Below, one piece after another: positions 4,495 through 56,651 of a stretch of DNA of 64,000 nucleotides. The stretch's first letter is position 1. Every line of letters starts with the position of its first letter. Source of the DNA: an uncultured virus (IMG/VR IMGVR_UViG_3300010370_000033) (taxonomy: Duplodnaviria > Heunggongvirae > Uroviricota > Caudoviricetes); the IMG/VR virus record IMGVR_UViG_3300010370_000033. One strand, written 5' to 3'. A program made the position numbers and the translations under genes. The notes below the pieces were generated by a model. It did not search any database and was not told the origin of the DNA. It saw nothing but the letters and a program-made list of their open reading frames with translations.

Positions 4495-6898
4495 TGGGCA
4501 TTTTAACCGTAGAAGTGTCAAGTTCTGCTGCCTTTGCTGATGGTTTTGTAAGTCCAGCATTGTTTGCACCCTCTAAGTCTGGTTCATTCACTGGTTGTCC
4601 CAAATCCATTTGAGAAGTTCCTTGTGGCAATGGCATTCCAGTTTCTGGATCAATTGGTGCATTTGGATCTGGAATTTCTCCATTTTCAATTTCCTTTTTG
4701 ATAATTGCATCTTGTTCCAGAATCTCTTGGTCAGTTTGACGAAGAATTTTACGACGAACATAATCTTTGGAGAAATATTTACCTACATAAGGTTCTGCTA
4801 CTTGAACCATATTTAATCGTTCGTTAAGTAGTTCAGAATCTTTTAGTTCAGCAAAATGATTATCATAAAGAAAATCATATTGAATATGTTCGCTCATAAT
4901 ATCCCAATCTTCTGGTGTCACAATGTTCTTCAGAAGAAGCTGAGTTCTTAACATATCGTGAAACATATAAGAAAATCTTTTTCTTAAACGAGCAACGAAT
5001 TTGCTGAACTTTACTTCGTCACGTAGAATCTCAGATGAACGACCAAGATTGAATCCACCTTCACCTTCCATTCTTGATGGAGGAACATTTAGTGACCGAT
5101 AAAGTTTTTTCTTAAAATATTCAATATCTGTGATTTCTCCAAGATTTTGTCCTCCTGGAAGTGTTGTAATTTCGGTTCCCCTTCCACCTTCTCTACGAGG
5201 AAGCCAGAAGTCTTCTAGCATGCTCATGAATTTTTTCGTATCCGTAATTTCGCCTGTTGAGGCATCATATGTTAATTTGTTACGATATCTCATCATAACA
5301 TCACGAAGATATTGTTCGGCTTTAATTTTAGGAAGATTTCCTACATCAATATAGAAAATTCTTCTTTCTGGAGCCCTTGAGTTATGAACGATAATACCAT
5401 TTGCTACGAAATTATGTTTTTCGTGTGCGACTTCAATATCATAAACTTTTTCAATATCAACCTCCTCAACTGATTCAATTTTTTCAAATTTGGGTAACTT
5501 ATACTCACCAATATAAAGTTGATAATCTTCATTTTGTTTGTTGATGTTACTTGAAGCAACTCCTATAGAAGTAATAATTTCTTTAATATCTTCAATAAAT
5601 TTTTTATTATCTGATGAAATTTTCCAAGAGAATCCGTCAATAGTATCCATTTGAATACCATAAGAATCTAAGACTTTACCAATATAATTTAATTTTACTT
5701 CATTACTTGATACAAAAAGATTTTCTGGAATTTCTTGTCTATTATTAAACTCTATAAAAATTTTATTAATGTCATTTTCTTCCTGACTAATATAAGTTAA
5801 ACAATGCCTCTTAGGTTCAAGGTCTTTAATCGGAACATACTTTACATCATTTGTCGTAGAATCATAAACTAAAATTGGATGAGTATCAGTTCCTACTACA
5901 CTATGATGCTTTGACTTTACTTTATATGTCTGCTTAACACCAGTTAACCATTTATTTGTAACTTGAGTTTCAACTAATTTATCAACTCTATTATCATAAG
6001 AATAAACAGTATCTCCTACTTGAATATCTTTGATGTAAGAATACCCTTTATCAGTTTTAACTCTGGTGTCTCCAATTAAACACAGACGATAAATTACCAA
6101 AGAATCCTCAATCATTCTGAGTTGATTCAGAGATTTAATTGCTTTATGCAAATAAGATAAAGTTGAACCCTTATTTCTATCAATCAATCCAGAGTGACAA
6201 TAAGTAATTGCATCTTTAGTAAATTTAATTCCTCCAGTTCCACCAAGAGATGATGGATTTGTGGTGGGGAAAGACATTTTTGGATTATAAACATAATATT
6301 CCTCAATTTTTGGAAATTCATATTCCATCGGATTAGAACTTCCCACGTTCGCCAATCTTTTTTGGCGGCGAGATTCATCAGTTTCTTTTTCTTGCCTCAC
6401 ATATCTCATTTTCATTGCATCAATATATCTCAATTCTTGAATGCCAAGATTGGGATTTTTAAAATCAATGACTTTATGATAATAAAGTCTTCCATCAATA
6501 TACCAGTTACGATATATTTCGTGAGACTTCTTATCAAAATCTAAAAGTTCTAAAATATACTTAAATTCTTCTCTAATTTTCCTTTTAATTCCATCACTCG
6601 CATTTAAATTTGATAGCTCAATTGCAATTGGACTATCATTCGTATCACTTACAATTGCTTCATTTACAATATCTTCAATGGCACTATCACATTCTGGATG
6701 AAGTGCCATTTCACGATATCTTTTAATTAAGTCAAATTCAGTTCTATAAACACCTTCAATATCTACATAAGATCCAAAGAATCCACTCGTTAGATAAAAA
6801 TCACTCCCGTCCGCATTGTTAGGCGGAACGGGAGATACTACTGTGGGATTTACCTTTTCATTTGAATCTTCAATAGAAAAACCAAAAAGTCTTGCCAT
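4478..6898 (-). CDS. g20: Portal vertex protein gp20 containing an intein
   Basis: MARLFGFSI, YREMALHPECD, LRMIEDSLVIYR, APERRIFYIDVGNLPK, EDFWLPRREGGRGTEITTLPGG; 572 aa after intein removal. Confidence 0.97.
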   Translation of the reverse strand: MARLFGFSIEDSNEKVNPTVVSPVPPNNADGSDFYLTSGFFGSYVDIEGVYRTEFDLIKRYREMALHPECDSAIEDIVNEAIVSDTNDSPIAIELSNLNASDGIKRKIREEFKYILELLDFDKKSHEIYRNWYIDGRLYYHKVIDFKNPNLGIQELRYIDAMKMRYVRQEKETDESRRQKRLANVGSSNPMEYEFPKIEEYYVYNPKMSFPTTNPSSLGGTGGIKFTKDAITYCHSGLIDRNKGSTLSYLHKAIKSLNQLRMIEDSLVIYRLCLIGDTRVKTDKGYSYIKDIQVGDTVYSYDNRVDKLVETQVTNKWLTGVKQTYKVKSKHHSVVGTDTHPILVYDSTTNDVKYVPIKDLEPKRHCLTYISQEENDINKIFIEFNNRQEIPENLFVSSNEVKLNYIGKVLDSYGIQMDTIDGFSWKISSDNKKFIEDIKEIITSIGVASSNINKQNEDYQLYIGEYKLPKFEKIESVEEVDIEKVYDIEVAHEKHNFVANGIIVHNSRAPERRIFYIDVGNLPKIKAEQYLRDVMMRYRNKLTYDASTGEITDTKKFMSMLEDFWLPRREGGRGTEITTLPGGQNLGEITDIEYFKKKLYRSLNVPPSRMEGEGGFNLGRSSEILRDEVKFSKFVARLRKRFSYMFHDMLRTQLLLKNIVTPEDWDIMSEHIQYDFLYDNHFAELKDSELLNERLNMVQVAEPYVGKYFSKDYVRRKILRQTDQEILEQDAIIKKEIENGEIPDPNAPIDPETGMPLPQGTSQMDLGQPVNEPDLEGANNAGLTKPSAKAAELDTSTVKMPKGGEI
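5381..6082 (-). mobile_element. Intein (234 aa) in gp20 with decayed endonuclease remnant
   Basis: VIYRL|CLIGDT...TDTHPIL...VYDIEV...NFVANGIIVHN|SRAPE. Confidence 0.93.
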
Positions 6899-9822: not shown

Positions 9823-11025
9823 TTAGTAGTTCCACATATATGAAAATTCAGCTTGACTATCGCCGTATTCATCTAGATACCAACGATCTCCATCTACATC
9901 AGTAAAAGTTTTATCTTCTAATCCATCCATAATGAATCCAAATGGAGCCATATCTTGTTCAATTTGATTCTTTTGTTCTTCGTATAATCTTTTTCTTACG
10001 TCTTGTTCTGTAAGTTCTTTGAAATAATCTTGTGCTACTAGCCAGGCATATAACACGAGGCAGATAGCCAAGTCATCATTACATCCTTCTTCAGCTTCAA
10101 ATGAATTATGTTTTTGAATAAAAGTTGTTAATTCTGAAATAATATCATAATCATTTAAAAATAACTTATCTTCTTCAATTAAAGTCTTAAGATTCAAACA
10201 TCCGATTTTCTTTACAGTTTTAGACATTTTCACACCCAATTGGGTGTGTTTTCCTGAGAATCCTTGTCCGACAATTTGACCAGCTCTTCCTCTCATTGAA
10301 CACATCAAAAGATTTGTGTATTCTAAGTCATAATGAATAATTGATGCTACTTGATCACCTACATCATTGACTTCACAAAAAATAAAAGCATTATTATAGT
10401 TTTTTGCAATATCTACAATAATACTTGGATATATCATTGGTTTAATCTGATTATTGCGATATTTTGCTACAACTTTATGAGGAAATGACGTAATATCAAT
10501 CACAACAAAAGCAGAATAATCTTTTTCTACACCTCTAGCTACATCAACAGTTATTAGATAATCGTGATTGTCTTGAGCCTCCTCAAAAACATCTAAATTC
10601 TTACTTTTTATTAATGGTGGTTCATACACAAGAGATTTAAGTTTTGGTGCAGAAATTAATGTGTCAATAGAACCCAAAAATTCACAATTATGCGAAAGAA
10701 TATTATTTGAATAATATATGTGGTCTTTTCCAGAATTTATTATATCAAATAATTCAATTCTTTTTTTAATAATTTTAAATTTTTTTAAAAAACACCCACC
10801 ATTTTTTCCATAAACTTCTGTATATTTGTCTAAGTCTTTTGCTTTTATTATTCCTTCTATCGTCATTAATGGGTGTTCTAATGAACATTTAAGAATTTCG
10901 CCATTTGTAAATTCTAAACGAATGTATTCATCTCTTACAATTTTATTTACTCCATAAAAGTTCTCAAATCCATAGGGAGTTTCAATTTTTATGTTGGAAT
11001 TATTTTTCAATATGTTGTCTGACAT
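9823..11025 (-). CDS. g17: Terminase large subunit gp17, C-terminal fragment (113 aa C-intein + nuclease domain)
   Basis: ...NNILSHN|CEFLGS...VDVARG...DYSAF...NDDL. Confidence 0.93.
   Translation of the reverse strand: MSDNILKNNSNIKIETPYGFENFYGVNKIVRDEYIRLEFTNGEILKCSLEHPLMTIEGIIKAKDLDKYTEVYGKNGGCFLKKFKIIKKRIELFDIINSGKDHIYYSNNILSHNCEFLGSIDTLISAPKLKSLVYEPPLIKSKNLDVFEEAQDNHDYLITVDVARGVEKDYSAFVVIDITSFPHKVVAKYRNNQIKPMIYPSIIVDIAKNYNNAFIFCEVNDVGDQVASIIHYDLEYTNLLMCSMRGRAGQIVGQGFSGKHTQLGVKMSKTVKKIGCLNLKTLIEEDKLFLNDYDIISELTTFIQKHNSFEAEEGCNDDLAICLVLYAWLVAQDYFKELTEQDVRKRLYEEQKNQIEQDMAPFGFIMDGLEDKTFTDVDGDRWYLDEYGDSQAEFSYMWNY
10687..11025 (-). mobile_element. C-fragment of atypically split TerL intein
   Basis: IKIETPYGF, CSLEHPL (block B), LFDII (block F), SHN|C (block G). 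Confidence 0.9.
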
Positions 11026-11060: not shown

Positions 11061-12929
11061 TTAGTTGGATAATAACTCATATAATTTTCCCATTTCAATA
11101 TCTACTATTTTATCATCAATTTTAACTTTAATCAAGGTCTCTGCGGCAACACTTTCGTGCTCTGCCCTGAACTGAGTTTCACTTGTGTTGGCTATAGTTT
11201 GTTTTTTCCATTCTTCATCTCTTCCCGGAACTTGAGACCAATGAACTTCTGTTGTTACAAATTCATTTCTACCTCTTTCGGCATCGTGCCACATTTGATA
11301 GAATTTGTTGAGTCCGCGTGGCGTGCTCACAATTATAACTTTTGTTGATTTTCCAGAAGAAATTGTTGGATACACGGATGCAAAGAATTCATCTGCAATA
11401 TGGTTCGGTACGAATGCGAACTCATCAAGAAAAATAATATTAAAGGTCATACCTCTAACGGCAGAAGCCGAAGTAGATGCGGCTAAAATTTTAGATCCGT
11501 TTTCAAGTTCTAATGATCCTTTATTCCAAGAAATGATCCCCTGTTGCATCCATTTTGGAAGATTTTCATAGGCTAATTGCAATCTACTTAATATTTCTCT
11601 AGAAGTAGAAGCCTTATTACCAAGAATACCAATAGTTACATTATCATTAAAAACAATATAATGTAATAGATATGAAATTACAGTCGTTGTGTTATGTGTT
11701 GGTATGAAAGTTTTTCCACACAAAAATAAATGATCTTCACTATCTACTTGAATACACGCAACAGGGACACTTTCAACTTTTTCTATTTTTTGTATATAAA
11801 TTCTTTTATTTTGTGGCCTTCCATTTCCATTAAAATTGATTAAATTTACTTTTCTAGGAAGATTAAATAATTTTTCTTTACTCGCAAACCTAATTGTATA
11901 ATACCAACAATTATTAATTAACTTTCTAGAAACTCTAGATTTTATTCCCAATGAAGAAAGTAGTTCTACAACTTGGGTAATAAATTCGTAATTTTTTTGA
12001 TAAAATTCAAATGATTGCGTTTTTGTTATTGAACCGTCAGTATCCATTAAACCACGAAGTAATTCTAATCTTTGTTCTATAGATGAACGAAGATATATTT
12101 CAGGAATATGTTTATTTTTTAATAAATTATTTTCTTTTAATTTTTTTCTTAAATTTTTGCACTTAAATCTTATACAATTTTTATCTTCCCTTTCGTATTC
12201 TACATCAATTCTAGTTTTATAATATTCATAATCATTTTTATGGGAAATTATTCTTCCATCAGAGGAGTAACCATCACCCAACCAAACTCCAAGAAGATAA
12301 GGATCAATTGGGAGATTCTTGTTTTCTCCTATAAAAGGTTTTGTATACTCAATGTATATTGGTCCAACTACACCTTTTCCTCTTTTATTATTTGATTTTT
12401 TTGAATATTTTAAATAGATTTCATTTGTTGTTATAACTTTTTTTCCAGTTCTCCAATCTTTAGCATTCACTTCCCAAAGATGATCGGCATCTGCAATAAT
12501 TTCCTCTCCATTATCAAAATATATTTTATAGCACTGATGATTAAACATTGTTTCCGTTTTAAAAGTAACAGAAACTTCATTTCCATCTGGAGATAATATC
12601 TTATCACCAACTTTAATATCACCAATTGTAGTCCAACCAGTTGCAGTTGGAATTGGCGTATCTAATGCTAAGGCTTTTCCCACTTGTCTACTGCACTTTA
12701 CGATATTAAATCTGTGTCTATGAAAATTACTAATTAAATTTTCTTGAAACGGCCACATTTTAAAATTAACGAGACCTTGATCTACGTTAACAATTTTAAC
12801 ATAATTTCTAGTGAAATATACGGGATCATCCTTACATTTTACAAATTCTAGAATTTGCTCTTCTGTAAATTGAATAGGAGTATTGGCTTTTTTAAGATTT
12901 GGGTTTCCTAAATATACACTATCAGACAT
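11061..12929 (-). CDS. g17: Terminase large subunit gp17, N-terminal ATPase fragment (internal intein + 30 aa N-intein)
   Basis: YLGNPNLK, Walker A SRQVGK|T, Walker B IIFLDEFAF, VSTP. Confidence 0.95.
   Translation of the reverse strand: MSDSVYLGNPNLKKANTPIQFTEEQILEFVKCKDDPVYFTRNYVKIVNVDQGLVNFKMWPFQENLISNFHRHRFNIVKCSRQVGKALALDTPIPTATGWTTIGDIKVGDKILSPDGNEVSVTFKTETMFNHQCYKIYFDNGEEIIADADHLWEVNAKDWRTGKKVITTNEIYLKYSKKSNNKRGKGVVGPIYIEYTKPFIGENKNLPIDPYLLGVWLGDGYSSDGRIISHKNDYEYYKTRIDVEYEREDKNCIRFKCKNLRKKLKENNLLKNKHIPEIYLRSSIEQRLELLRGLMDTDGSITKTQSFEFYQKNYEFITQVVELLSSLGIKSRVSRKLINNCWYYTIRFASKEKLFNLPRKVNLINFNGNGRPQNKRIYIQKIEKVESVPVACIQVDSEDHLFLCGKTFIPTHNTTTVISYLLHYIVFNDNVTIGILGNKASTSREILSRLQLAYENLPKWMQQGIISWNKGSLELENGSKILAASTSASAVRGMTFNIIFLDEFAFVPNHIADEFFASVYPTISSGKSTKVIIVSTPRGLNKFYQMWHDAERGRNEFVTTEVHWSQVPGRDEEWKKQTIANTSETQFRAEHESVAAETLIKVKIDDKIVDIEMGKLYELLSN
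11064..11153 (-). mobile_element. N-fragment (30 aa) of atypically split TerL intein
   Basis: QFRAEHE|SVAAETLIKV...IEMGKLYELLSN*; block A-like, placed exactly where the extein continues as CEFLGS. Confidence 0.85.
11691..12674 (-). mobile_element. Class 3 intein (328 aa) with LAGLIDADG endonuclease in the gp17 Walker A motif
   Basis: Starts with Ala (ALALDTPIPT); WCT signature DHLW / VACIQV / PTHN|T; LLGVWLGDG and LRGLMDTDG. Confidence 0.92.
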
Positions 12930-45300: not shown

Positions 45301-46467
45301 TTAGATTACCTCCTGAGATTCTTTTCTAACGATTTTTACGATGTCCTTATGAGATTTTATTTCTTTATTAATTAAGAAATATAGAGAAGAACTAGAATAT
45401 CCTCTTTCTCTGCACATCTTATTTAAGTTTTTAATCACTTCAGTTCTTCCGTCATTATATGTGATCTCGTATTCCTTTTCTTTATAGCTAGTTTCCGGAT
45501 TTCCTCCTTTGATTGAGTTTTCACTAAGAGACATCCATTGTAAATTTGAAGGATGATTATTTAGTTTATTCCAATCAATATGATCTACGGTATCGTATTT
45601 TAATGGATTGGGATTTTCAATCAATTGTTTTGCAACAAGACGATGAACTTTTTGTATGATTTTCTTAGTTCCGGGAAGTTTCATATTTAAATGATAATAA
45701 CCAGTCTTATGAAGATGTTGAGAAATTTCTCTGGTAAATTCTTCTGAAAGAATCATTTCGTCTTTCACTCTTTCCCATTTACTAAAGATTCTTACTTTTT
45801 CGGATGCATCGTCTTTCTTATATACAATATAATAACCAGGCCAATCAGTTAATTCTACACAATCATATTCAGAAACATCAATTTTAGATTTAGGCTTTCT
45901 TCTTGTTCTACCTGTTTTAGGTCTTTCAATTTCTGTAAATGAAATAATTCCTTTATACTCACTAATTTCTCCTTTTCTTAGGCGATACAAAGATCTTTCT
46001 GTTAAGCTATTCTTTTCAAGAAACTCTAGAAATCCATTGATGATTTCCTTTCTTCCGTCCTTATATACGGCTTCAAATTGTTTGACTCCTCCTTTTGCAC
46101 GATTAATGTTCGCAGAAAAAGTTCTATACTCAGAATCCGATGCCCATTTTAGATTTGATGGATGGCAGTTATAAATGTTTCCGTCTTTATGAATCACTCT
46201 TGAATAATTTTTTGTATTTCTTAAGAGATAAGATGCAACTAGAGTATCTAAGTAGAGTCTTTGCTTTTTACCCATTGTTGCAATCGTCACATAAAGACGG
46301 TCACGATCATCAGCAGATTTCAAAGGTCTTGAATATGATTCATCAATCACGGCTGGTGTTTTTCCAGTTTTTCTCCAATTACTATGAATCGTAACGGGTA
46401 TTGATGAATCATATTCGTCATAAGAAAAATAGTATCCTTCGTGTTCTTTGATTCTGATGGTTTTCAT
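45301..46467 (-). CDS. Free-standing HNH homing endonuclease with two tandem HNH modules
   Basis: VIHKDGNIYNCHPSNLKW and VHRLVA...VDHIDWNKLNNHPSNLQW. Confidence 0.85.
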   Translation of the reverse strand: MKTIRIKEHEGYYFSYDEYDSSIPVTIHSNWRKTGKTPAVIDESYSRPLKSADDRDRLYVTIATMGKKQRLYLDTLVASYLLRNTKNYSRVIHKDGNIYNCHPSNLKWASDSEYRTFSANINRAKGGVKQFEAVYKDGRKEIINGFLEFLEKNSLTERSLYRLRKGEISEYKGIISFTEIERPKTGRTRRKPKSKIDVSEYDCVELTDWPGYYIVYKKDDASEKVRIFSKWERVKDEMILSEEFTREISQHLHKTGYYHLNMKLPGTKKIIQKVHRLVAKQLIENPNPLKYDTVDHIDWNKLNNHPSNLQWMSLSENSIKGGNPETSYKEKEYEITYNDGRTEVIKNLNKMCRERGYSSSSLYFLINKEIKSHKDIVKIVRKESQEVI

Positions 46468-47519: not shown

Positions 47520-47819
47520 ATAAACCTCGTATTTTAGATAATACAAATGTAAATCCAAAATTCAGACAAAGTACCAAAGATAAACTTTCTTCAGAATCAG
47601 ATTTTGAAAAAGAACCTGTAAGTGTAATGCCAAAGAAATCGTGCTCGTGGTGAAAAACAAGTTCCTCAGCATATTATGAAAGCAATGTGGAATCAGCACG
47701 ATTAATTTAAGAAAACGAAAGAAGGAAAAGAAGCAGTTCGTCAAGGTGATAAGATTTCAAAACAACTTCGTATTTCTAGTAGACAAAGAAGATTCCGAAG
47801 AAGAACAACTAAAGGATGA
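47520..47819 (+). pseudogene. Remnant of polynucleotide-kinase-like (PseT/AAA_33) gene
   Basis: Frame a: RILDNTNVNPKFR; frame b: NRARGEKQVPQHIMKAMWNQHD*FKK; no start or Walker A, one frameshift, one in-frame stop. Confidence 0.55.
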
Positions 47820-47832
47820 TTTTTTTTTTCAT

Positions 47833-47856
47833 AAGACCCTTTTGGGTCTTTTTTTA
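47833..47856 (+). terminator. Intrinsic terminator
   Basis: AAGACCC-TTTT-GGGTCTT followed by T-run. Confidence 0.8.
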
Positions 47857-48110
47857 TGGCAAAAATTTTTTTTATGAAAAGGGTATTTTGAGTTTTATTT
47901 TTGGGAAAAAATTTTTTTATGAGAGTGACATTTAGAGATCGCTTTCAAAGTTTTGTAGCCTTATGGTACCTTTGGTTTTAAGGAAGGGGGGGCCTTAGGG
48001 GCCTTAGGGGCCGCATCGCCCGCTATAAGAAATAACAATTAAATCAAAATACCTGCCTATTCACTATTCACGCAAATCACGATTCATTCACTATTCAATA
48101 CACTCTGAAT

Positions 48111-48216
48111 TCACGTCGATATAGTTAAATCACGCAAATCACTATTTTACACTTAGCGATTGCGTCGATATAGTTAAATCCAACGATTCACGTCGATATA
48201 GTTAAATCACGCAAAT
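48111..48216. repeat. Three direct repeats of CGTCGATATAGTTAAATC
   Basis: Copies at 48114, 48163 and 48191. Confidence 0.9.
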
Positions 48217-48266
48217 TCCCATAAAGAAAGGCCCCATAAAGGGGCCTGAGAAGTATAGGTATCTGC

Positions 48267-48950
48267 TCAACAGATACTATCAACGAAGCTCTGAATTTGC
48301 TCCCGACAGCCAGCGGGAATCTTAGTGGAAATTCCCCACTGTTCCGTAACAGATCCCAGAAATTCGGGACCGTACCCATAGCTTCCTGGCACAATGTTGC
48401 TGGGATTCTTAACCCACACTTTAGTCTTGCATTTGCTGAGATAGAGTGCGCATGTTTCAGACAATTTGATAGATTTGCTGCGACCTTTCACGGCCTGCAG
48501 AGATGCAACGATCGCGGCAAACGTTGCCGCAAATTCACCATCACTGTCACTTGCATTCTCACTAGAATTCTGACGAGAATGCAACCAATCGTTGGCCATT
48601 TTGTGTGCCCACGCTACTTGATTTTCATTCAATTTATCCCATTTTGCTAGGAGAGAAGCGGCAAAATCGTTAGATTTGCCGTTCATGTAGGCACAGTAAG
48701 ATAATGCCTGACGCAGTTGCTGATCGCTCAGCATAGACTGAAATTCAATTCTCTCGCCGTTACGCTTAGTTGCAACGTAGGTGCGGCCCTGGTAAGCGGG
48801 GCATTCTGCGGCCAGTTCGGCGGCCGCCAGTTCCCGCTCGAGATTGGCGGCCGCCATGGGATTGACGCGGGCCAAAGCGGACAGGGAGAGATCGGCAGCA
48901 TCGCCCGCGATGGGGGCGGCAACGGTCACGGTGGCAGCGGTGGCAGGCAT
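48267..48950 (-). CDS. Early hypothetical protein (GC-rich 5' half; start reassigned to MPATA)
   Basis: TAGAAT box upstream; FAASLL..W..L.E.Q.AWAHK motif; GGCCCC hairpin terminator downstream. Confidence 0.65.
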   Translation of the reverse strand: MPATAATVTVAAPIAGDAADLSLSALARVNPMAAANLERELAAAELAAECPAYQGRTYVATKRNGERIEFQSMLSDQQLRQALSYCAYMNGKSNDFAASLLAKWDKLNENQVAWAHKMANDWLHSRQNSSENASDSDGEFAATFAAIVASLQAVKGRSKSIKLSETCALYLSKCKTKVWVKNPSNIVPGSYGYGPEFLGSVTEQWGISTKIPAGCREQIQSFVDSIC

Positions 48951-49039
48951 GGCTTCGCCCTTGTGTGGAACTCCCAAATTCTACAGCACCGACAGCCGAA
49001 CCGCGACCGCCAGCGCAACATTTGTTCACGTTACAACGT

Positions 49040-49098
49040 TGGCAGGGGAGGTTACGAAATTTTGCGTCATCGAGGCTACCCTGCCTCTCGTTGGATTG
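49040..49098 (-). ncRNA. Candidate small RNA, 'hairpin-CCUGCC' family, minus-strand copy
   Basis: TAGAAT then AATCCAACGAGAGGC..GCCTC...CCTGCCAA; homologous to plus-strand copies. Confidence 0.45.
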
Positions 49099-49169
49099 TC
49101 TCAGAATTCTAGCCTCTCAGATCTCCATCCGGTCGGATCTGAGAGGCATTGGAGACGGTTCAGCGACCG

Positions 49170-49526
49170 TCACACGGTCAGCGGTGGCGTGAGAAGCCCG
49201 CGCCAGAGCATCGCAGCCCCTGAAGCCCACCGCTGTAGCTCTGGCCATGCTCTGGCGGCCATCCATTGCCTCGCAGCCGGCCAGAGCGTTTCCCGGATGA
49301 TGGCGGCTGCCACGGCTGCCAGAGCGGTTCCAATCGCTGCAGCGGAGCGCAGACGGTCACTGCAGCGATGCTCTCGCCATCGCTGGCTGATGATGATGGC
49401 GATGGCTGCCACTAGAAGGCAAACGGACTCTATGGCATCCATCATGGAATTGTAGTGTTTCCGATAGTCTATTTGCTGCAGAAATGCAATGGCAGCATCA
49501 GCAGGCGGGAAGGATTGCGAGTTCAT
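49170..49526 (-). CDS. Early hypothetical membrane protein
   Basis: 118 aa, two hydrophobic stretches; leader CCATTGCATT..ATC ATG shared with neighbours. Confidence 0.55.
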   Translation of the reverse strand: MNSQSFPPADAAIAFLQQIDYRKHYNSMMDAIESVCLLVAAIAIIISQRWREHRCSDRLRSAAAIGTALAAVAAAIIRETLWPAARQWMAARAWPELQRWASGAAMLWRGLLTPPLTV

Positions 49527-49604
49527 GATACAAATGCAATGGATTGAGATAAAGAAAGGGGAGGAATTTCACCTCCCATGATATTGGAGCGCAGACGGTC
49601 GCCA

Positions 49605-49769
49605 CTACAGAGCCCGCAACGATCCCCGCATTAGGGACGCTGCACTAGCAGCCAGTGCCGCCGCGATGGCGGCCTGTTCTATCCCAGGCTGTCGTTCGGT
49701 GCTGATCGCCCTTGCGGCGAGAGTCAGCATCGCAGCAGAAACCAGAACGGAGAGAATGAAGCGACGCAT
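49605..49769 (-). CDS. Small hydrophobic early protein (54 aa; not in ORF track)
   Basis: MRRFILSVLVSAAMLTLAARA...; leader CCCATTGCATTAGAATC ATG. Confidence 0.5.
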   Translation of the reverse strand: MRRFILSVLVSAAMLTLAARAISTERQPGIEQAAIAAALAASAASLMRGSLRAL

Positions 49770-49834
49770 GATTCTAATGCAATGGGAATTTGAGTAGAGA
49801 AAGGGGAGATTTGATCTCCCCAGAGTGTAGAAAT

Positions 49835-50065
49835 TCAGCCGAGACTGTGAGCCCAGTGGATCAATTCTCCTAGATCAATTCCACATCCTTCCCAGTCGCT
49901 AGCTGGCCCATAATGGGTAGCAAATTCTTTAGCCAACCCTGCGCAGTCTGCACAAGCGGCAACGATCCCATAGGGTATGGCCCCATTAGAATCACAAAAT
50001 TCTGCCGCGTAAGAATAGAGAATCCCCGCGCGGGGATTGAGATCGGAAATGGCGAGTGCGGGCAT
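49835..50065 (-). CDS. Early hypothetical protein
   Basis: 76 aa; TTGGCA-17-TAGGAT promoter upstream (50090-50118). Confidence 0.6.
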   Translation of the reverse strand: MPALAISDLNPRAGILYSYAAEFCDSNGAIPYGIVAACADCAGLAKEFATHYGPASDWEGCGIDLGELIHWAHSLG

Positions 50066-50360
50066 CGGTCCGATGTGGATTGCTCCGCCATCCTACAGAC
50101 CACACCACCGCTTGCCAACGTTCCGAACCATTAAGAACGTTTATGTTTCGGGACGTTGCAAAGGGCCGCCGATGGGGCTCCTGAGAGGCTAGGATTGCGT
50201 CAGCCGCAAGGGGGAAGCCTTGAATGCCTGAATGACAATCCGATCAGCGGGGGCGCCGCGGAGACACAAATCAAGTCACTCACCCTGCCTTGAATGTAGA
50301 GTATAAAGAATAAAAAAAGAACTAGGAGTTTAATCCCAGTTCTTTATTGAAATAGATTGT

Positions 50361-50693
50361 TCAAGAATAATAATTCCCAACAATCACAGTTCCATTGTAA
50401 CAGTATTTCATAAGAATTCCACTGGAATAAGTATCAGGATTGTATCCATCCCATTTCCTATAATCAAAGGAAGACATTTGATTTGAAGAAATTTTAATAA
50501 AATCTCCGACGTGATACCATTGGCCGCGATACTTGAAGAATTCTGCACTATCAAATTCATCCTCAGTAAGATAGTCAAACTGCCCACGGAGTTTATTATA
50601 CAAACTGCCTGGGCGCAGTCCACCGAAACCGTCCAACCATTGGCCCATGATGCACTCACGGGGAACGTTGTTTGTCTTAATGATGGCGGCCAT
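50361..50693 (-). CDS. Early phage hypothetical protein (start MAAIIK)
   Basis: FFKYRGQWY, WDGY..DTYSSG; promoter and terminator bracket it. Confidence 0.7.
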   Translation of the reverse strand: MAAIIKTNNVPRECIMGQWLDGFGGLRPGSLYNKLRGQFDYLTEDEFDSAEFFKYRGQWYHVGDFIKISSNQMSSFDYRKWDGYNPDTYSSGILMKYCYNGTVIVGNYYS

Positions 50694-50718
50694 TGTCGTC
50701 TCCGTTGTGGACTCCCAT

Positions 50719-50812
50719 AGTATGGGGCATGGAAGGCACCTATGGGCCAGTTCGGGGACGGTTCGGGAACCGGCACAAGCCACCCACAGCAGCAGATCAG
50801 ATCGACTAGACT
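50719..50812. promoter_or_regulatory. Symmetric divergent promoter: -10 / palindrome / -10
   Basis: CATACT (minus, 50719-24), 30 nt, GGGACG-N10-CGGCAC (50755-76), 30 nt, TAGACT (plus, 50807-12). Confidence 0.7.
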
Positions 50813-50817
50813 CTAAG

Positions 50818-50897
50818 AAATCAAACGAGAGGCGGAAACCTCAACGACAACAAATAGGAAACTTATCCTGCCAAATTTATTCACTATAAACAATAAA
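50818..50897 (+). ncRNA. Candidate small RNA, 'hairpin-CCUGCC' family
   Basis: AAATCAAACGAGAGGCGGAAACCTC...CCTGCCAAATTTATTCACTATAAACAATAAA; near-identical copy at 52918. Confidence 0.5.
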
Positions 50898-50982
50898 CTA
50901 AAATTTGATTCACTATAAACTATTCACGAAAAAGTGAATGAGAATTCTATTCACTAAGAATTCTCATTCACGATTGAATTCA

Positions 50983-51258
50983 CTATACTAGAGTCATTTT
51001 ATTAAGCATATCAAATTCAAGCACAAGACCACACTCAAAGTATAGACCAACGATCAAATCATTGTGCTTGATGCAAGCATTAGGATAAAAGAACCACCGA
51101 CTGCCGATGTTGTTCATTCGATAAACTGCATCCTCCAGGGTATCAAATTCACCCTCACGAACAATGTCGACATCCTTTGTACGATTCTGGAGAGCATTAT
51201 ATACATCATCAATGCTCATCTGATCGGTATTCTCAGAAAAGAAATGAAGCGTGAACAC
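50983..51258 (-). CDS. Early hypothetical protein
   Basis: 91 aa, GTG start; NNIGSRWFFYP. Confidence 0.6.
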   Translation of the reverse strand: MFTLHFFSENTDQMSIDDVYNALQNRTKDVDIVREGEFDTLEDAVYRMNNIGSRWFFYPNACIKHNDLIVGLYFECGLVLEFDMLNKMTLV

Positions 51259-51284
51259 GATAAGAAATGCAGTGGGAATTTGAG

Positions 51285-51314
51285 TGAGCCAGTTTATAGT
51301 CTTAGCTCAGGACT
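51285..51314 (-). ncRNA. Intercistronic H-type pseudoknot motif, copy 1
   Basis: AGUC-CU-GAGCU-AA-GACU-AUAAACU-GGCUC. Confidence 0.6.
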
Positions 51315-51320
51315 TGTGGG

Positions 51321-51473
51321 TCATTTGACCTTACCACTCCGAAGGTGGCCAGCCCAGACATAGGCCGGAGCCGTAACAATCCGCAACCTATCGCCATCAT
51401 CCACGATGCCAGCCCAAACGTAGGACTGGTCGGCCAGACTGCAAGCGATTCGAAGGGGAGCGGTGAGACGCAT
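51321..51473 (-). CDS. Small early protein (50 aa; preferred over track ORF 51302-51529)
   Basis: MRLTAPLRIACSLADQSYVWAG...YVWAG...; follows a CATACT box and the CTCCA-ATG leader seen elsewhere. Confidence 0.55.
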   Translation of the reverse strand: MRLTAPLRIACSLADQSYVWAGIVDDGDRLRIVTAPAYVWAGHLRSGKVK

Positions 51474-51717
51474 TGGAGGCGATTCCTGAACGACTCACAC
51501 AGTATGGGCCAGAATTCACGCCACGTCAATCACCAGACTCATTAGCACTGCTAATCACTGAATTCTCACGGATCGGCTGGTGATCTGCTAGACTATGGGG
51601 ACAATCAAACGAAACGCGGGCGGCGTGGAACCACAAATCAAGACACTACTCCTGCCAAATTTATTCACTATAAAGAATAAAAAAGAATAGGGATTTGATT
51701 CCCTATTCTTATAGAAT

Positions 51718-52032
51718 TCAATTCAGAAGAATTCCCGACTCAAATTCTTCCTCTTTTCCATCATAAGAAATAAACCATTGATGGTTCTTTTGATAAATGT
51801 ATTCGCCGTTTCCGTGAGCAGAAAGAATAGCGTTAAGTCTCGATTTGGTGGTCGTTGTTCTCCAACCGCCATCATAAAGTTTCAGCCAAGTATCACCAAT
51901 CTCGGCAATTTTGTTGCCATGAAGCCTCACAATGGAAACCTCATTCTCATTATAGACAGAAGTATTAGCCTGCTGCCAATCCTTAGATTGAGTGATGGCT
52001 TGGTTCATCAGGGTTTCAATCTTGCGTGCCAT
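51718..52032 (-). CDS. Conserved phage early protein (start MARKIE)
   Basis: LHGNKIA...GW.T.TTKSRLNA motif. Confidence 0.75.
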   Translation of the reverse strand: MARKIETLMNQAITQSKDWQQANTSVYNENEVSIVRLHGNKIAEIGDTWLKLYDGGWRTTTTKSRLNAILSAHGNGEYIYQKNHQWFISYDGKEEEFESGILLN

Positions 52033-52309
52033 GATGGTTTGGATGACGACTCCCTTAGTATGGGGCCTGGAAGGCACCTATGGGCCAGGCAATGGACAGT
52101 TCGGCAAACTGGCACAAGATCACACACAGGGTCGCAAAATGCCCTATCATTGTCTCAGCGGCACAGGAGGGCCACTTGAAAGCATTCACGACAATTTAAC
52201 GAGACTCCGAAGGTCGTTGACGAAGAGTAAGCCAAATTCACCCTGCCTTGAATATAAAGTATAAACAATAAAAAAGGAATTCACGAGGAATTCCCATTTG
52301 TTTAGAGAA

Positions 52310-52789
52310 TCACTTAAGATTCTCTTTCAATTCTGGAATCAAATAATCACGAACGTATTCCTCTACATTTGCATGCGGTTCAACGCCACCAATTCCACTA
52401 GATTCAATGAGTACAGTATGCTCACCTACGATAGACTTTGCTGGCCCATAAAGAGACAGATTCAGGTATGAGAAACCATACTCAATAATCTCTCTCACCA
52501 TAAATTCAGTCTTACTATCATCATAGACTTTCTTACCTTCACGATAAGGCATCCACCAGAGTTTATTATACCTATCACGACGAAGTATCTTAGCAGAACC
52601 ATCAAATTCTGGTGGCCGTGCATCACTCCACTTTACTTCACCATAGCATTCTACATCGTTAATGTCATAAGCATCATCCGATTCTTCTTTCAGAATCAGA
52701 TAATAACCATTGCCAAGATCATACTTTTTATCAATCTCAATCTCACAAGGATTCACGCAATCAAGATCAAATGGAAGTGTGACGATCAT
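52310..52789 (-). CDS. Early hypothetical acidic protein (start MIVTL)
   Basis: Promoter, shared leader GGGAGTCCACAACGGA, terminator. Confidence 0.65.
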   Translation of the reverse strand: MIVTLPFDLDCVNPCEIEIDKKYDLGNGYYLILKEESDDAYDINDVECYGEVKWSDARPPEFDGSAKILRRDRYNKLWWMPYREGKKVYDDSKTEFMVREIIEYGFSYLNLSLYGPAKSIVGEHTVLIESSGIGGVEPHANVEEYVRDYLIPELKENLK

Positions 52790-52816
52790 TGGAATCAATC
52801 CGTTGTGGACTCCCAT

Positions 52817-52912
52817 AGATTAACGGCAGAATCACCAACCGAACCTATTCAATGTGCCACTGAATGAACTGGCACATTCACGAGAATTTGACTCCAGAGT
52901 ATGCTGTAGAAT
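52817..52912. promoter_or_regulatory. Symmetric divergent promoter: -10 / palindrome / -10
   Basis: TAATCT (minus, 52817-22), 31 nt, GTGCCA-N10-TGGCAC (52854-75), 31 nt, TAGAAT (plus, 52907-12). Confidence 0.75.
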
Positions 52913-52917
52913 TCACG

Positions 52918-52997
52918 AAATCAAACGAGAGGCGGAAACCTCAACGACAACAAATAAGAAACTTCACCTGCGGAATTTATTTACTATAAAGAATAAA
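52918..52997 (+). ncRNA. Candidate small RNA, 'hairpin-CCUGCC' family
   Basis: Near-identical to 50818-50897. Confidence 0.5.
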
Positions 52998-53058
52998 CAA
53001 TAAGAAAGAATGGAATTCAATTCACTAACTGAATTCCATTCTGAATTGTATTCACGAA

Positions 53059-53256
53059 TTAAACTGGATCTGCCTCCCAAATGTCATAAGTTGCATTGGG
53101 AAACTTACGCTCTAATTGTTCAATCTTATTCTCCGCAAGTTCCCAGGATTTATGACGAGAAACTAACCATTCTTCTTTGTTTTCTTCACTCAATTCAATT
53201 CCTTCTGCATTCAATTCACTAATTGAATCAATGTCAACCACGAGAAAGTTAAACAT
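53059..53256 (-). CDS. Small acidic early protein (start MFNFL)
   Basis: Follows pseudoknot copy 2; terminator downstream. Confidence 0.55.
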   Translation of the reverse strand: MFNFLVVDIDSISELNAEGIELSEENKEEWLVSRHKSWELAENKIEQLERKFPNATYDIWEADPV

Positions 53257-53288
53257 TGGAATTTGCCTCAAGAATAAAGAATTGAATT

Positions 53289-53318
53289 TGAGTCAGTTTA
53301 ATGACTTGACTCAGGTCA
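53289..53318 (-). ncRNA. Intercistronic H-type pseudoknot motif, copy 2
   Basis: UGAC-CU-GAGUC-AA-GUCA-UUAAACU-GACUC. Confidence 0.6.
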
Positions 53319-53323
53319 ATTCA

Positions 53324-53527
53324 TCACAGAATAATAAAATCAATCAAGTTCTGAATGAGTTTGTATTCTTTATCATTCACAAAACACCAGCCATTCATTC
53401 TACAAATATACTCGGCACAATCGTTCACATTTGCACCTTGCTGAATCATAATGCAAAGTTGAGGAAAATGCCTCACGATCTTATACTGATAATCAGCAAG
53501 ATCGGTCGCTTGATTCTCAGTGAGCAT
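53324..53527 (-). CDS. Small early protein (start MLTEN)
   Basis: Downstream of CATACT box at 53552-57. Confidence 0.55.
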   Translation of the reverse strand: MLTENQATDLADYQYKIVRHFPQLCIMIQQGANVNDCAEYICRMNGWCFVNDKEYKLIQNLIDFIIL

Positions 53528-53807
53528 TGCGTTTGCCTCATGAACAGACACAGTATGAATCACGAAACGCCCCAGCACCAGCGATCTTGTGCCACTGAAT
53601 GAACTGGCACATTCACTCACTCATTCGCCCCAAATACACTAGAATACTCTCAGTTCACAAGAAAACCTTATGATTGTATTTCTCAAAATCTAATTCAGAG
53701 GCGGAAACCTCATTCACGAAAAATAAGGTACTTCACCTGCCAAATTTATTTACTATAAACAATACAAAAAAGGGAATTCAATAAAGAATTCCCTAAAGAG
53801 ATTGAAT

Positions 53808-54041
53808 TCACCAATTTAGAAATTCATTTGCATTCTCTTCTGCAAGTTCTTCTGTATCAAAAGGACCAAACCATTCACTATCAGGAATGCATTCAGGAGA
53901 ACATACACACCAATAAAAGCCAGGAGTGTATTCTGTATCACCATAATTCTCATTTAATTCTTCTGATTCATTATACTCATCACACTCAAATTGATTCATA
54001 TAATCAATCCAAACCGGAGTGGATCCAATGAGAGTTTGCAT
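53808..54041 (-). CDS. Small acidic early protein
   Basis: GFYWCVCSPECIPDSEWFGPFDTEELA. Confidence 0.65.
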   Translation of the reverse strand: MQTLIGSTPVWIDYMNQFECDEYNESEELNENYGDTEYTPGFYWCVCSPECIPDSEWFGPFDTEELAEENANEFLNW

Positions 54042-54153
54042 TGTTCAGAAAGTGATGAACAGATACAGTATGGGGCACATAAGATCCTTCTGGGGCACAT
54101 AGGGGACACTTGAAGAACTGGAACACTTTCATTCGCCCCATATGGTTTTGATG

Positions 54154-54348
54154 CTACTCATCTTTATTCACGATTTTGTCTAATGTTTCAATCAATGAGT
54201 TCTGAATCTTATGTAAATAAGAATCACCTTTTAATTCACAGATTGTTTCATAATAATCTAAAAGTTCTTCAACGTGTTTAATTTGATTACTTGGAATTCT
54301 TATCTTATCGGTTTTACCTAAATGAGAATACTTTGATGAAAATGGCAT
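54154..54348 (-). CDS. Small protein, possible ribbon-helix-helix DNA binder
   Basis: GKTDKIRIP followed by two helices; TATAAATA at 54374-81; flanked by TTCATTCGCCCCA repeats. Confidence 0.45.
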   Translation of the reverse strand: MPFSSKYSHLGKTDKIRIPSNQIKHVEELLDYYETICELKGDSYLHKIQNSLIETLDKIVNKDE

Positions 54349-54540
54349 AATTCATTCGCCCCATATAACGATTTATTTATACGCCCCAGATACAATTCAT
54401 TTGCCCCAGATAGAATCTTATTTACTAAATCATCTGGACCACATAAAACTTAATTCATTAAAACAAACTTCATTCAATCTTGTTTCTTATTGTATTCTTG
54501 AATCTCTTGTTTCTTGAGTTCTACTGTTCCTTAACTACCG

Positions 54541-54580
54541 AGACTCTAAGGTACTCTAAGTGTCTCTAAGGTAACTTAAA
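54541..54580. repeat. Degenerate tandem 10-mer (nnnCTCTAAG) x3-4
   Basis: agactctaag gtactctaag tgtctctaag gtaacttaaa. Confidence 0.75.
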
Positions 54581-54608
54581 CTAACCTGTATCATCGCTGA
54601 CAAGGCTA

Positions 54609-54637
54609 ATTCTACAGCAAATCAAATACACTGTCAA
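54609..54637 (-). promoter_or_regulatory. Near-consensus sigma70 promoter with no adjacent ORF
   Basis: TTGACA-17-TAGAAT. Confidence 0.8.
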
Positions 54638-55237
54638 GTCCTTGAGATATTATGTTTACATTTCGTAACAATTAGATTCACGAAAAGAATTGACTAAGAG
54701 TTCTTATGATTCACTGATGAACCATTAGATTCTTATTCACGAGAACTCCAATTCTTATACAAAATTCAAAGTCCACTCAGATTGACCTAGAAGGCCATCG
54801 TTTTCTCAAAAACATTTACGACATCATATGAGGCCCTAGAGTGCCCTTCTGAGGCTTTCTAGCAGCCTCCTACGATGCTTTAGACTCAAGGATTCAATGC
54901 ACCGTGAAAATAAGACTCAAAAATACCCTAAAGTAGGAACTTTAATGTATCTCTTAAGAATCTTAAAAATGATCGCTTTAATTCACTCAAAATCAGTTTC
55001 ATCAGAATCCACCAGACCCATTAAATCTCACGTTGCGTCTCGCTGAGATCCCTTGGTATGACTGGGCTCAAAAACGCAAAAAATCGTGATTTTCACGAAA
55101 ACGTACTAGACATCGTTCACTACAAATAGAATCAACGATTTTTTGGAAATTGATTTTCCCAACAAAAAAGGGGCTCCGAAGAGCCCCTAGAATGTCAATG
55201 TATCTTCAGGTAGTCTTATTCAGGACTTTAATTCACA

Positions 55238-55884: not shown

Positions 55885-56068
55885 CTAAGATCACAATAAG
55901 AATTGGCATTTACTAGCATTTACTAGCATTTACTAGCATTTACTAAGGTTTGCTCAATAAGATCTGACATTTTCCCAATAAGATCACCATAAGAAATAGC
56001 TTTTACTAAGGTTTCCTCAATAAGAACTAAGATTTCTCAATAATATCAACTTTTTCTCAATAAGATAC
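55885..56068. repeat. Iteron-like array: GCATTTACTA x4 plus about six CAATAAGA units
   Basis: Tandem at 55906-55945; CAATAA(G/T)A at 55894, 55956, 55976, 56018, 56038, 56058. Confidence 0.85.
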
Positions 56069-56153: not shown

Positions 56154-56651
56154 ATGATAGATGCACCACATAAAGAGGTTTGGAGAATCAAAGGATTTGA
56201 AACCTTTACAAATTACTTTATTGATGTAAATGGTAATGTATATTCTACCAAGTATAAGAACCTTCGCAAACTTAGACCATATTGGGCTAACAACAAAGAG
56301 AACCCATATTGGAGAGTTACTCTATGCGATAAAAATGGTAATCTAAGAAAGTTTTATATTCATCAACTGATGCGTGCTGCATTCATTCCAGAAGAAATGC
56401 AGGGACGTTATGTATTTGCTGGAAATAAGAATCGTAAAGATAATTCACTTCGCAATCTCACTCAAGAATATGAACTCAATGAAGATGTTCGCAATGAGAT
56501 TAAGTTAATACATCAGGCTTGTATTGAGAAAGGATTGAATGTTTCTGATTACTCTGGTTTTGTGAATGAAGTGATGAGTGAGATGTTAGAAGAATATGTA
56601 AATCGTAAAGGATTGAAGAAGATATTGTATAGACTGAAGAATGAGCAATAA
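56154..56651 (+). CDS. NUMOD4/HNH-derived protein with degenerate active site and helical C-terminal domain
   Basis: NYFIDVNGNVYS, YWRVTL, FYIHQLMRAAFI, N..DNSLRNL; the usual DH is absent. Confidence 0.6.
   Translation: MIDAPHKEVWRIKGFETFTNYFIDVNGNVYSTKYKNLRKLRPYWANNKENPYWRVTLCDKNGNLRKFYIHQLMRAAFIPEEMQGRYVFAGNKNRKDNSLRNLTQEYELNEDVRNEIKLIHQACIEKGLNVSDYSGFVNEVMSEMLEEYVNRKGLKKILYRLKNEQ

Follow-up and report, generated by a model that had tools for sequence, protein, structure and literature searches.

Promoter-early stem-loop (PeSL) cassettes of the T4-type phages RB49/phi1, PST/T4 and nt-1/KVP40 are, in the excerpted passages of the two papers on them, conserved composite intergenic repeats of about 100 bp in a hyperplastic region, where they flank unrelated orphan open reading frames (ORFans); each repeat couples a terminator stem-loop with a host-type promoter, a full −35/−10 promoter directed toward the next gene, and related phages differ by genes gained or lost between copies (PMC2839356, PMC4122927). 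A separate RNA product is not described in those passages, and an excerpt of a further paper reports that PeSL-like elements are few in cyanophage S-PM2 (PMC4503421). Here we analysed a 64,000-nt stretch of DNA from an uncultured virus (IMG/VR record IMGVR_UViG_3300010370_000033; hereafter the window), whose intergenic blocks share these features and hold seven short repeats, the units u1 to u7. We conclude that the unit is probably a small non-coding RNA gene of an undescribed phage family, lying within a PeSL-like bidirectional cassette. The preliminary description of the window had already drawn the comparison with PeSLs, which is apt for the whole intergenic block; the unit, with its own predicted promoter and RNA-level hairpin, goes beyond what the PeSL passages cover. 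The block differs from a PeSL in being about 280 bp long with −10-only promoters, in that conservation is highest in a unit whose own promoter usually faces the opposite way and whose hairpin shows RNA-level covariation, in having a palindromic site between two promoters, and in that contig joints give no more than hints of recombination at the units themselves.

The trans-acting small RNA type represented by Yfr1 in marine picocyanobacteria consists of a 5' stem-loop, an unpaired C/U-rich tract and a 3' hairpin. The units resemble RNAs of this type in size and layout and in that several copies per genome are possible; they differ in having no Rfam match, no target found and a 3' hairpin that mostly lacks a U-tail on the unit strand, and in having been found in phage-like contigs only, including the one contig found among 185,579 prokaryote species. 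The boxB element of lambda nut and the put element of HK022 are promoter-proximal RNA elements that act on RNA polymerase, and RNA anti-CRISPRs are phage RNA decoys. With these the units share a short hairpin near the 5' end, conserved single-stranded flanks, carriage by phages and the possibility of multiple copies; they show no sequence likeness to them, no antiterminator or Cas partner was identified, and, unlike nut/put-type elements, the units mostly face away from genes. As excerpted from PMC9964418, T4-like cyanophages carry the wcaG, manA, glnA and PhotoRC-II motifs and the CfrI antisense RNA, which are, like the units, structured intergenic non-coding RNAs of the same phage group; these are Rfam families or gene-specific antisense RNAs, mostly cis-regulatory leaders, and none matched the units, which, unlike them, are promoter-equipped and attached to variable ORFan cassettes.

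The seven related units, six on the plus strand and one on the minus strand, lie between minus-strand ORFans and are far above chance. The 64-kb window has six matches to the pattern CCTGC-N(12-20)-TATAAASAATA, each on the plus strand (0 expected, 100 shuffles), and these recover precisely the CCTGC positions first given for the plus copies (50284, 50867, 51651, 52242, 52967 and 53736); GAGGCGGAAACCTC occurs three times compared to 0.07 expected, and a repeat finder returned a 97-nt family (four copies, 64-87% identity) and a 70-nt family (three copies). The units, with their −10-like hexamers, are as follows.

49041-49111, minus strand: u7, −10 TAGAAT at 49111-49106 and 61-nt core at 49101-49041, composed of leader ACAATCCAACGA, hairpin GAGGC-AGGGTA-GCCTC, linker and CCCCTGCC.
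50190-50312, plus strand: u1, distal −10 TAGGAT at 50190-50195, 5' extension of ~38 nt, core 50233-50289, hairpin GCGG-GGGCG-CCGC, CCTGCC at 50284, tail TATAAAGAATA.
50807-50895, plus strand: u2, −10 TAGACT at 50807-50812, core 50815-50872, hairpin GAGG-CGGAAA-CCTC, tail TATAAACAATA.
51589-51679, plus strand: u3, −10 TAGACT at 51589-51594, core 51599-51656, hairpin ACGC-GGGCG-GCGT, tail TATAAAGAATA.
52145-52270, plus strand: u4, distal −10 TATCAT at 52145-52150, 5' extension, core 52189-52247, hairpin GACU-CCGAA-GGUC, one pair of which is a U·G that the plus strand alone allows, tail TATAAACAATA.
52907-52995, plus strand: u5, −10 TAGAAT at 52907-52912, core 52915-52972, hairpin GAGG-CGGAAA-CCTC, CCTGCG, tail TATAAAGAATA.
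53640-53764, plus strand: u6, distal TAGAAT at 53640-53645, proximal TATGAT at 53669-53674, core 53683-53741, tail TATAAACAATA.

All seven units, and both units of the relative L007 introduced below, have a 4-5-bp hairpin about 14 nt from the predicted start, with 37-41 nt from hairpin start to CCTGC start and a linker of 23-28 nt. The paired sequence differs between copies, as had been claimed, with five arm combinations in the window (GAGG/CCTC, GCGG/CCGC, ACGC/GCGT, GACT/GGTC and GAGGC/GCCTC). Units u2 and u5 are 87% identical over 97 nt, their neighbouring genes being different. The intergenic regions that house the plus-strand units measure 269-498 bp and read, in plus-strand order, the left ORFan's leader with a −10-like hexamer, a palindrome, an opposed −10-like hexamer, the unit and the right ORFan's predicted terminator, a hairpin plus T-run on the minus strand. 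Six of the seven units aim into the 3' end of a gene, and u7, the most canonical copy in the window, shares its strand with the downstream 227-aa gene. Among relatives, G014 has two units that converge with no gene between them and a unit C on the same strand as the flanking genes; together with u7, the convergent pair bears out that the unit is directional and can take either orientation with respect to genes. The motif TATAAA(G/C)AATA, originally counted as part of the unit, is present in the six plus copies and is otherwise limited to L007; it lies outside the family core, and its gene-strand reading is the continuation of the terminator T-run.

Near and distant BLAST searches of the region against 50,697 phage records revealed no near-identical DNA and at most 10 short chance-level pieces, and IUPAC (International Union of Pure and Applied Chemistry) patterns resting on the window-specific tail had no match in IMG/VR. 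In metagenomes the tail patterns returned the window phage again and one distinct relative, L007, with two units, one of them behind a perfect TTGACA-N17-TATACT; L005, L008 and L009 from the same scan were discarded as chance matches. We then fetched 80 IMG/VR loci around homologues of Kyano_Gp96, in which a regular expression located three diverged units, and a covariance model of the 60-nt core (R1) gave 15 units in 82 sources, all opposite in strand to the ORFan. A pattern taken from the R1 units, GACGA-N(6-8)-TCGCCAC-N4-CCTGC, occurred at a minimum of 123 IMG/VR loci (at least 123); among the 80 distinct matches listed, about 12 G+C-rich ones without the hairpin look like chance, and the others form one clear consensus. 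The input to the following covariance round (R2) was 100 sources, namely 99 of these loci and the locus of Synechococcus phage DSL-LC03; ten chance-looking loci (L118, 122, 132, 135, 137, 141, 142, 147, 165, 196) and fourteen others (L202-205, 207, 208, 210, 213, 215, 217-221) were left out of the set.

R2 yielded 101 copies, 70 of them distinct, in IMG/VR contigs of T4-like phages and in DSL-LC03, a metagenome-assembled genome (MAG) from a lake, where the copy occupies an unannotated gap; a word search of the DSL-LC03 paper found no mention of non-coding, promoter, intergenic, sRNA or repeat (PMC10611076). Five large or complete records carry 1-4 copies apiece. In five other large phage records, reached via Kyano_Gp96, no R2 match was significant (best E 0.45 and 0.86), and none of the three that are at least 90% complete holds a significant copy. 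The scan of prokaryotes, with one genome for each of the 185,579 species, gave a single copy; the contig that bears it is phage-like and had been placed in the bin of a Flavobacteriales MAG. Since the copies were found in phage-like contigs, this single one included, the family looks phage-borne.

We also built a covariance model, R3, from the 101 copies in other phages (alignment A5), with no window sequences, and ran it with filters off on both strands of the window. The seven units were the top seven of the 20 listed matches, with E-values, to be taken as rough, of 1e-11 (u7), 7e-4 (u2), 1.2e-3 (u1), 2e-3 (u3), 5e-3 (u5), 0.04 (u4) and 0.57 (u6, the poorest fit and alone not significant). 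The inverted copy at 49041-49101 was thus the best match in the window (56.4 bits); a "possible partial copy" suspected at 48052 scored just 10 bits (E 2.5) and is not supported. In the plus-strand units the leader and hairpin are preserved, as are the spacing and CCUGCC; with respect to the conserved loop RRGGUA and linker GACGA..TCGCCAC, u7 alone among the window units keeps AGGGUA and GAUGACG. Judged by sequence, the six plus copies are diverged members of a larger family, one that appears common in freshwater and estuarine T4-like cyanophages.

No Rfam family corresponds to the unit. Rfam 15 gave 0 matches at the gathering score across the whole window, chance-level matches only and none on a unit at E<=10 in 47800-55000, and one unrelated match (Plant_U3, E 0.1) for 16 canonical loci; a search for transfer RNA and transfer-messenger RNA found none. 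Likewise, the literature covered by full-text searches, with PMC3037559 and PMC9964418 included, gave no description of the unit family. The supposition that this RNA lacked a known description is therefore upheld as far as Rfam and these sources extend, and the covariance models made from the copies did recover relatives.

Evidence for an RNA comes from the hairpin. Its five pairs, taken over the 70 distinct copies, give 350 cells, and all 350 are standard pairs, whereas shuffling leaves 76.5%; 69 cells are changed on both sides relative to the commonest pair, and compensatory changes affect four of the five pairs. The innermost pair (19-26) is AU in 26 copies, CG in 24, UA in 9, GC in 5, GU in 3 and UG in 3; the basal pair (15-30) is G·U in 64/70 and G-C in 6/70. 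Shifting the 3' partner by 1-3 columns lowers pairing to 51-64%. The 70 G·U cells are mismatches on the opposite strand and C·A or A·C cells number zero among the 350, and therefore the helix appears to be selected on the unit strand, which supports RNA-level selection on the hairpin. The search pattern set GACGA, TCGCCAC and CCTGC and did not touch the stem. Mutual information marked the hairpin pairs only, with no further covarying pair, RNAalifold added just an invariant 3-bp helix, and single-sequence folds (z −0.7 to −4.7 on both strands) did not discriminate between strands.

Several other identities were tried and rejected. One minimum-free-energy fold paired the C-rich tract with the hairpin's G-rich arm, a pairing with no covariation; a small open reading frame within the unit has frames that are not kept across L080, L067, L015 and u7; and for K-turn, preQ1-I, guanidine-II and sarcin-ricin-loop motifs, the required flanking pairing is absent and there was no Rfam match. 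A TnpB guide RNA was set aside since the sequences on either side of the TnpB gene (3285-4469) have nothing in common with the units, and as regards a Chi-like or restriction site, CCTGCC/GGCAGG occurs just 13 times in the window, eight of them in units.

A promoter-like hexamer accompanies the unit throughout the family. TAnnnT stands 4-11 nt upstream of the invariant leader AA in all 67 distinct copies with enough upstream sequence, at a spacing of 6 or 8 nt in 63 of them; the 16 hexamer variants have T1, A2 and T6 invariant and the middle positions free, a pattern that is expected of a −10 element, and TAnnnT at 6-8 nt is found at 6% of random positions in the same loci. The hexamers of the window units begin at 50190, 50807, 51589, 52145, 52907 and 53640 and, on the minus strand, occupy 49111-49106, located as claimed, including the inverted copy's own. 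The 6-8 nt rule fits u2, u3, u5 and u7 and holds in close relatives too, L007 with its TTGACA-N17-TATACT among them; u6 has TATGAT 11 nt before the core start in addition to the distal TAGAAT. On the gene strand, −10-like hexamers (TACTAT, TACTGT, TACTAA, TAATCT) lie 20-30 nt upstream of ATG, and a −35 was predicted for two of the ORFan hexamers only. ORFan mRNAs have a common leader start, GGGAGT(C/T)C(C)ACA(C)AA(C/G)GG, directly after the −10 hexamer (sites at 48951-49010, 50694-50722, 52033-52060 and 52790-52815), a second conserved module of the cassette. A T4-type late promoter (TATAAATA, NATAAATA or CTAAATA) was rejected as the identity of the unit's TATAAA(G/C)AATA, which is without the TAAATA core; the structural genes of the window phage are preceded by GATAAATA, CATAAATA, CTAAATA or AATAAATA.

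Between the opposed hexamers lies a palindrome, in five window cassettes.

50759-50772, no strand: CGGTTC-GG-GAACCG in GGACGGTTCGGGAACCGGCAC, midway between gene −10 50717-50722 and unit −10 50807.
51541-51555, no strand: ATTAGCA-C-TGCTAAT, midway between gene −10-like hexamer 51499-51504 and unit −10 51589.
52097-52111, no strand: CAGTT-CGGCA-AACTG in GGACAGTTCGGCAAACTGGCAC, midway between −10 boxes 52055-52060 and 52145.
52851-52878, no strand: AATGTGCCA-N10-TGGCACATT, midway between −10 boxes 52817-52822 and 52907.
53588-53611, no strand: TGTGCCA-N10-TGGCACA, midway between −10 boxes 53550-53555 and 53640.

In all five, 40.5-43.5 bp separate the centre of the palindrome from the near edge of either hexamer. 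The preliminary description had noticed this layout, which is real and recurs in other phages, in four cassettes instead of five. In the strict form GTGCCA-N10-TGGCAC, the palindrome lies upstream of 17 of the 67 relatives' units at a fixed distance and downstream of 13. GTGCCA-N10-TGGCAC, which the window has at 52851-52878 and 53588-53611, is conserved across many phage contigs (L080, L103, L113 and others) and looks like a candidate binding site of a dimeric regulator.

On the far side of the unit, predicted terminators, six of which are hairpin plus T-run sites directly after ORFan stops on the gene strand, face the opposite way.

50316-50345, minus strand: terminator hairpin and T-run of gene 50361-50693, abutting the u1 tail.
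50934-50971, minus strand: terminator hairpin and T-run of gene 50983-51219, downstream of u2.
51683-51710, minus strand: terminator hairpin and T-run of gene 51718-52032, abutting u3.
52275-52295, minus strand: terminator hairpin and T-run of gene 52310-52789/52816, abutting u4.
53007-53042, minus strand: terminator hairpin of gene 53059-53256, downstream of u5.
53771-53794, minus strand: terminator hairpin and T-run of gene 53808-54041, abutting u6.

By prediction, the region has 18 terminator-like sites compared to 6.1 expected, and the sole unit-strand (plus) listing in the window is 52276-52294. Among relatives, 26 of 53 hairpins downstream of units have an A-run ahead of them, and 15 further units are without a hairpin by the criteria used. 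In one subfamily a hairpin of 12-13 bp is conserved, ATTCTCAATAAG-loop-CTTATTGAGAAT, whose loop varies and which lacks A/U runs; it follows CCTGCC by 11-23 nt in L102, L103, L106, L111, L113, L144, L163, L180, L186, L195 and L199 and, from its sequence, may be a dedicated 3' stem-loop or processing site.

The units keep company with many different genes. The divergent open reading frames beside 66 of the 70 units fell, with crude calling, into 35 unrelated clusters, 22 of them single. L080 and L082 are 96% identical and differ by an indel of ~500 bp that has the ORFan promoter motif TTCGTGCCATACT, common to both, at its borders. In four other metagenomes, relatives' contigs are broken or joined at the window repeats (for example at the joints 50288>52258, 51604>52208, 50746>54104 and 50985>51253, whose short sides measure 23-30 nt, and at a fifth, 50913>51253, where the short side is 61 nt); these joints, placed at 85% likeness and with short sides, are hints only. 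In sequence terms, the behaviour of the intergenic block as a whole (~280 bp) is that of a shuffling cassette of the PeSL type.

Taken together, these comparisons across phages support the view that the units are small RNAs, that is, promoter-driven structured RNAs of ~100-140 nt that are usually divergent from the ORFan promoter across a shared palindrome. Membership in a widespread, undescribed structured-RNA family makes the unit a good candidate for a new phage regulatory RNA. In the mechanism we propose, a putative host-type −10 (TAnnnT, no conserved −35) would act 6-8 nt upstream of the leader (A/C)AAUC..GA; next would come the 5-bp hairpin, whose sequence changes as its pairing is kept and whose G·U pairs can form on the unit strand only, and then ~25 nt of conserved, presumably single-stranded sequence ending in the almost invariant CCUGC(C). 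The RNA, of ~100-140 nt, would have its 3' end at the large hairpin, which doubles as the terminator of the convergent gene. Unit and neighbouring ORFan promoters would fire divergently in most cassettes, and a dimeric factor on the palindrome (in many phages GTGCCA-N10-TGGCAC), centred ~54 bp from each predicted start, could co-control both; the transcripts are presumed to be early. The RNA most likely acts in trans via its CCUGCC tract: the hairpin would stabilise the RNA and present this C/U-rich tract, which would bind a purine-rich RNA site or a protein. The ~280-bp block of terminator, unit, operator, ORFan promoter and leader would be a portable, PeSL-like cassette; recombination would move ORFans in and out of such cassettes, and the window phage would have multiplied the block to seven copies.

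A number of observations weigh against reading the unit as a small RNA gene. The window terminators carry their T-run on the gene strand and, in relatives, a unit-strand U-tail follows 6 of the 53 downstream hairpins, and therefore the transcripts may read on as antisense RNA; on these grounds the earlier suggestion that the RNA ends head-to-head at the neighbour's terminator is weak. Copies u1 and u4 have no proximal −10 and depend on a hexamer ~38 nt farther upstream, and no conserved −35 box was found for the units among the copies compared. The six plus copies, with loops CGGAAA, GGGCG or CCGAA, have lost TCGCCAC and fit R3 weakly; having lost both the RRGGUA loop and the TCGCCAC tract, some may therefore be decaying. 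Alignment A5, from which the pairing counts derive, was fitted to the model structure, and the invariance of GACGA, TCGCCAC and CCTGC in the 70-copy set is not evidence, because the search pattern fixed them. The 35 unrelated clusters mean that the frames beside 66 of the 70 units include no conserved protein partner. As for targets, a search of DSL-LC03 for a further complement of the 18-nt tract, with <=3 mismatches allowed, found none, and the duplex energy with the neighbouring ORFan start region shows no gain over shuffled sequence (−13.2 compared to −12.4 kcal/mol, p = 0.25).

We consider it rather unlikely that the unit is instead the conserved 5' module of a cis-acting transcript and not a discrete trans-acting RNA. 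Its promoter could fire against the neighbouring ORFan, with antisense RNA or polymerase collision insulating the cassette or shutting the early gene; or the unit could be a leader that modifies or stabilises a downstream transcript (put-like or as a 5' stabiliser), which for u7 would be that of the same-strand 227-aa gene. No terminator separates u7 from that gene, u7 and G014 unit C are co-oriented with flanking genes, and six of the seven window units point into gene 3' ends. Moreover, the window terminators face the gene strand, and most of the relatives' downstream hairpins do not terminate in the direction of the unit (47/53 are without a U-tail, and 26/53 have an A-run ahead, as gene-strand terminators do). 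However, an antisense launcher alone needs no ~60 nt of conserved sequence with a covarying hairpin, the convergent G014 units have no gene between them, and the conserved hairpin of 12-13 bp that one subfamily has 11 nt past CCUGCC, free of A or U runs, has the look of a 3' stem-loop of the unit's own.

Less probable again, to the point that we doubt it, is a repeat that works as DNA only, a PeSL-type recombination handle and regulatory spacer conserved via gene conversion and protein binding, whose RNA would be functionless. The units do flank unrelated ORFans, u2 and u5 are 87% identical despite different neighbours, contigs in other metagenomes break or join at the repeats, the cassette-sized L080/L082 indel is flanked by a shared promoter motif, and PeSLs are, in the passages excerpted, documented shuffling sites (PMC2839356, PMC4122927). 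But recognition of double-stranded DNA leaves the compensatory changes, the 100% pairing and the G·U in 64/70 unexplained, as well as a TAnnnT held at a fixed distance through 16 variants; the indel is bounded by the ORFan promoter motif and not by a unit, and the contig joints are weak (short sides, 85% likeness). Finally, we give almost no credence to the gene strand being the functional one, with a promoter TATA(G/C)T after the terminator T-run, a long leader, and a small hairpin followed by UCGUUUGAUU that attenuates transcription into the next ORFan: TATAGT/TATACT does stand 10 nt before GGCAGG in all eight tail-bearing window and L007 copies, and in u2 and u5 the small hairpin together with TCGTTTGATT resembles a minus-strand terminator, but on that strand the basal pair is A·C in 64/70 relatives and all 70 G·U cells are mismatched, the TATA(G/C)T-GGCAGG spacing is not kept in relatives (L080 has ~25 nt, T-rich), their U-rich stretch is not adjacent to the stem, and each ORFan has its own −10 hexamer 20-30 nt before the start codon.

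The window comes from an uncultured myovirus that is T4-like and of cyanophage type, with PHROG matches for portal, sheath, terminase and baseplate wedge; its gp6 homologue shares <=59.4% identity with those of Synechococcus/Prochlorococcus phages. Among 24 public sequencing runs that contain the stretch, none is listed as RNA. Every plausible gene at 48.2-54.4 kb is a small minus-strand open reading frame.

48267-54348, minus strand: run of small ORFans separated by the cassettes (from the open reading frame list, Pfam and PHROG).
48950, 49526, 49769, 50065, 50693, 51219, 52032, 52789/52816, 53256, 53527, 54041 and 54348, minus strand: ATG starts of the ORFans.

Among 12 of these small genes tested, 11 have no Pfam family and 10 have no PHROG match; the sole named family is Kyano_Gp96 (Pfam), in gene 51718-52032. 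G+C content is 41-56% at 48-53 kb compared to ~32% over most of the window. A G+C-rich island (48200-50100, 49-56%) carries four ORFans of 227, 118, 54 and 76 aa, and L080 has a similar step beside its units, from ~35-39% to 54-60%. Free-standing HNH endonuclease genes stand on both sides of the ORFan region (45301-46467, minus strand; 56154-56651, plus strand).

Three other repeats were noted. A ~44-nt repeat with GTCGATATAGTTAAATCAC has three copies at 48099-48219 (plus strand), one of them with TTTACA-N17-TATAGT; these copies point at the 3' end of the 227-aa gene and adjoin T-rich low-complexity DNA and GGGGCCTTAGGGGCCTTAGGGGCC (47800-48020). The repeat ATTCATTCGCCCCA(A/T/G)ATA has 4-5 copies, at sites including 53619-53638, 54124-54140 and 54350-54414, with three tandem copies at 54350-54414 and one copy immediately upstream of the u6 −10. 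A 10-nt tandem repeat, GCATTTACTA, spans 55906-55955 in ~4.5 copies.

Elsewhere in the window, a TnpB-type gene (3285-4469, plus strand) with the domains OrfB_IS605, Cas12f1-like TNB and HTH_OrfB_IS605 sits amid structural genes. Two neighbouring frames on the minus strand, 9823-11025 and 11061-12929, match large-terminase families, which suggests a terminase gene that is split or interrupted. In the 806-aa portal protein (4478-6898, minus strand), residues ~264-372 match ribonucleotide reductase and helicase PHROGs, as expected of an insertion such as an intein.

T4-like cyanophages rank among the main killers of picocyanobacteria, and to our knowledge their early programme, which is without the T4 MotA/AsiA system, is poorly understood. 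This analysis defines a compact, strongly covarying RNA motif that comes with a predicted promoter of its own, present in at least 70 distinct copies in lake and estuary viromes and absent from Rfam, together with a conserved palindrome between divergent promoters and the cassette that bears both. It puts forward a specific candidate for a regulatory or anti-defence RNA encoded by phages, supplies a marker by which the hyperplastic early region could be recognised in phage contigs from metagenomes, and proposes a testable model in which ORFan cassettes carry their own bidirectional control region. More tentatively, the units could form a new class of regulatory or decoy RNA wired to early ORFan cassettes by the shared operator. 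If so, each accessory early gene switched on would mean one more ~100-nt RNA made, whose CCUGCC tract and hairpin would tie up a factor of the host, such as an RNA-binding protein of defence or of RNA decay, or else silence the host's mRNAs, and the seven-copy expansion in the window phage would be a dosage adaptation.

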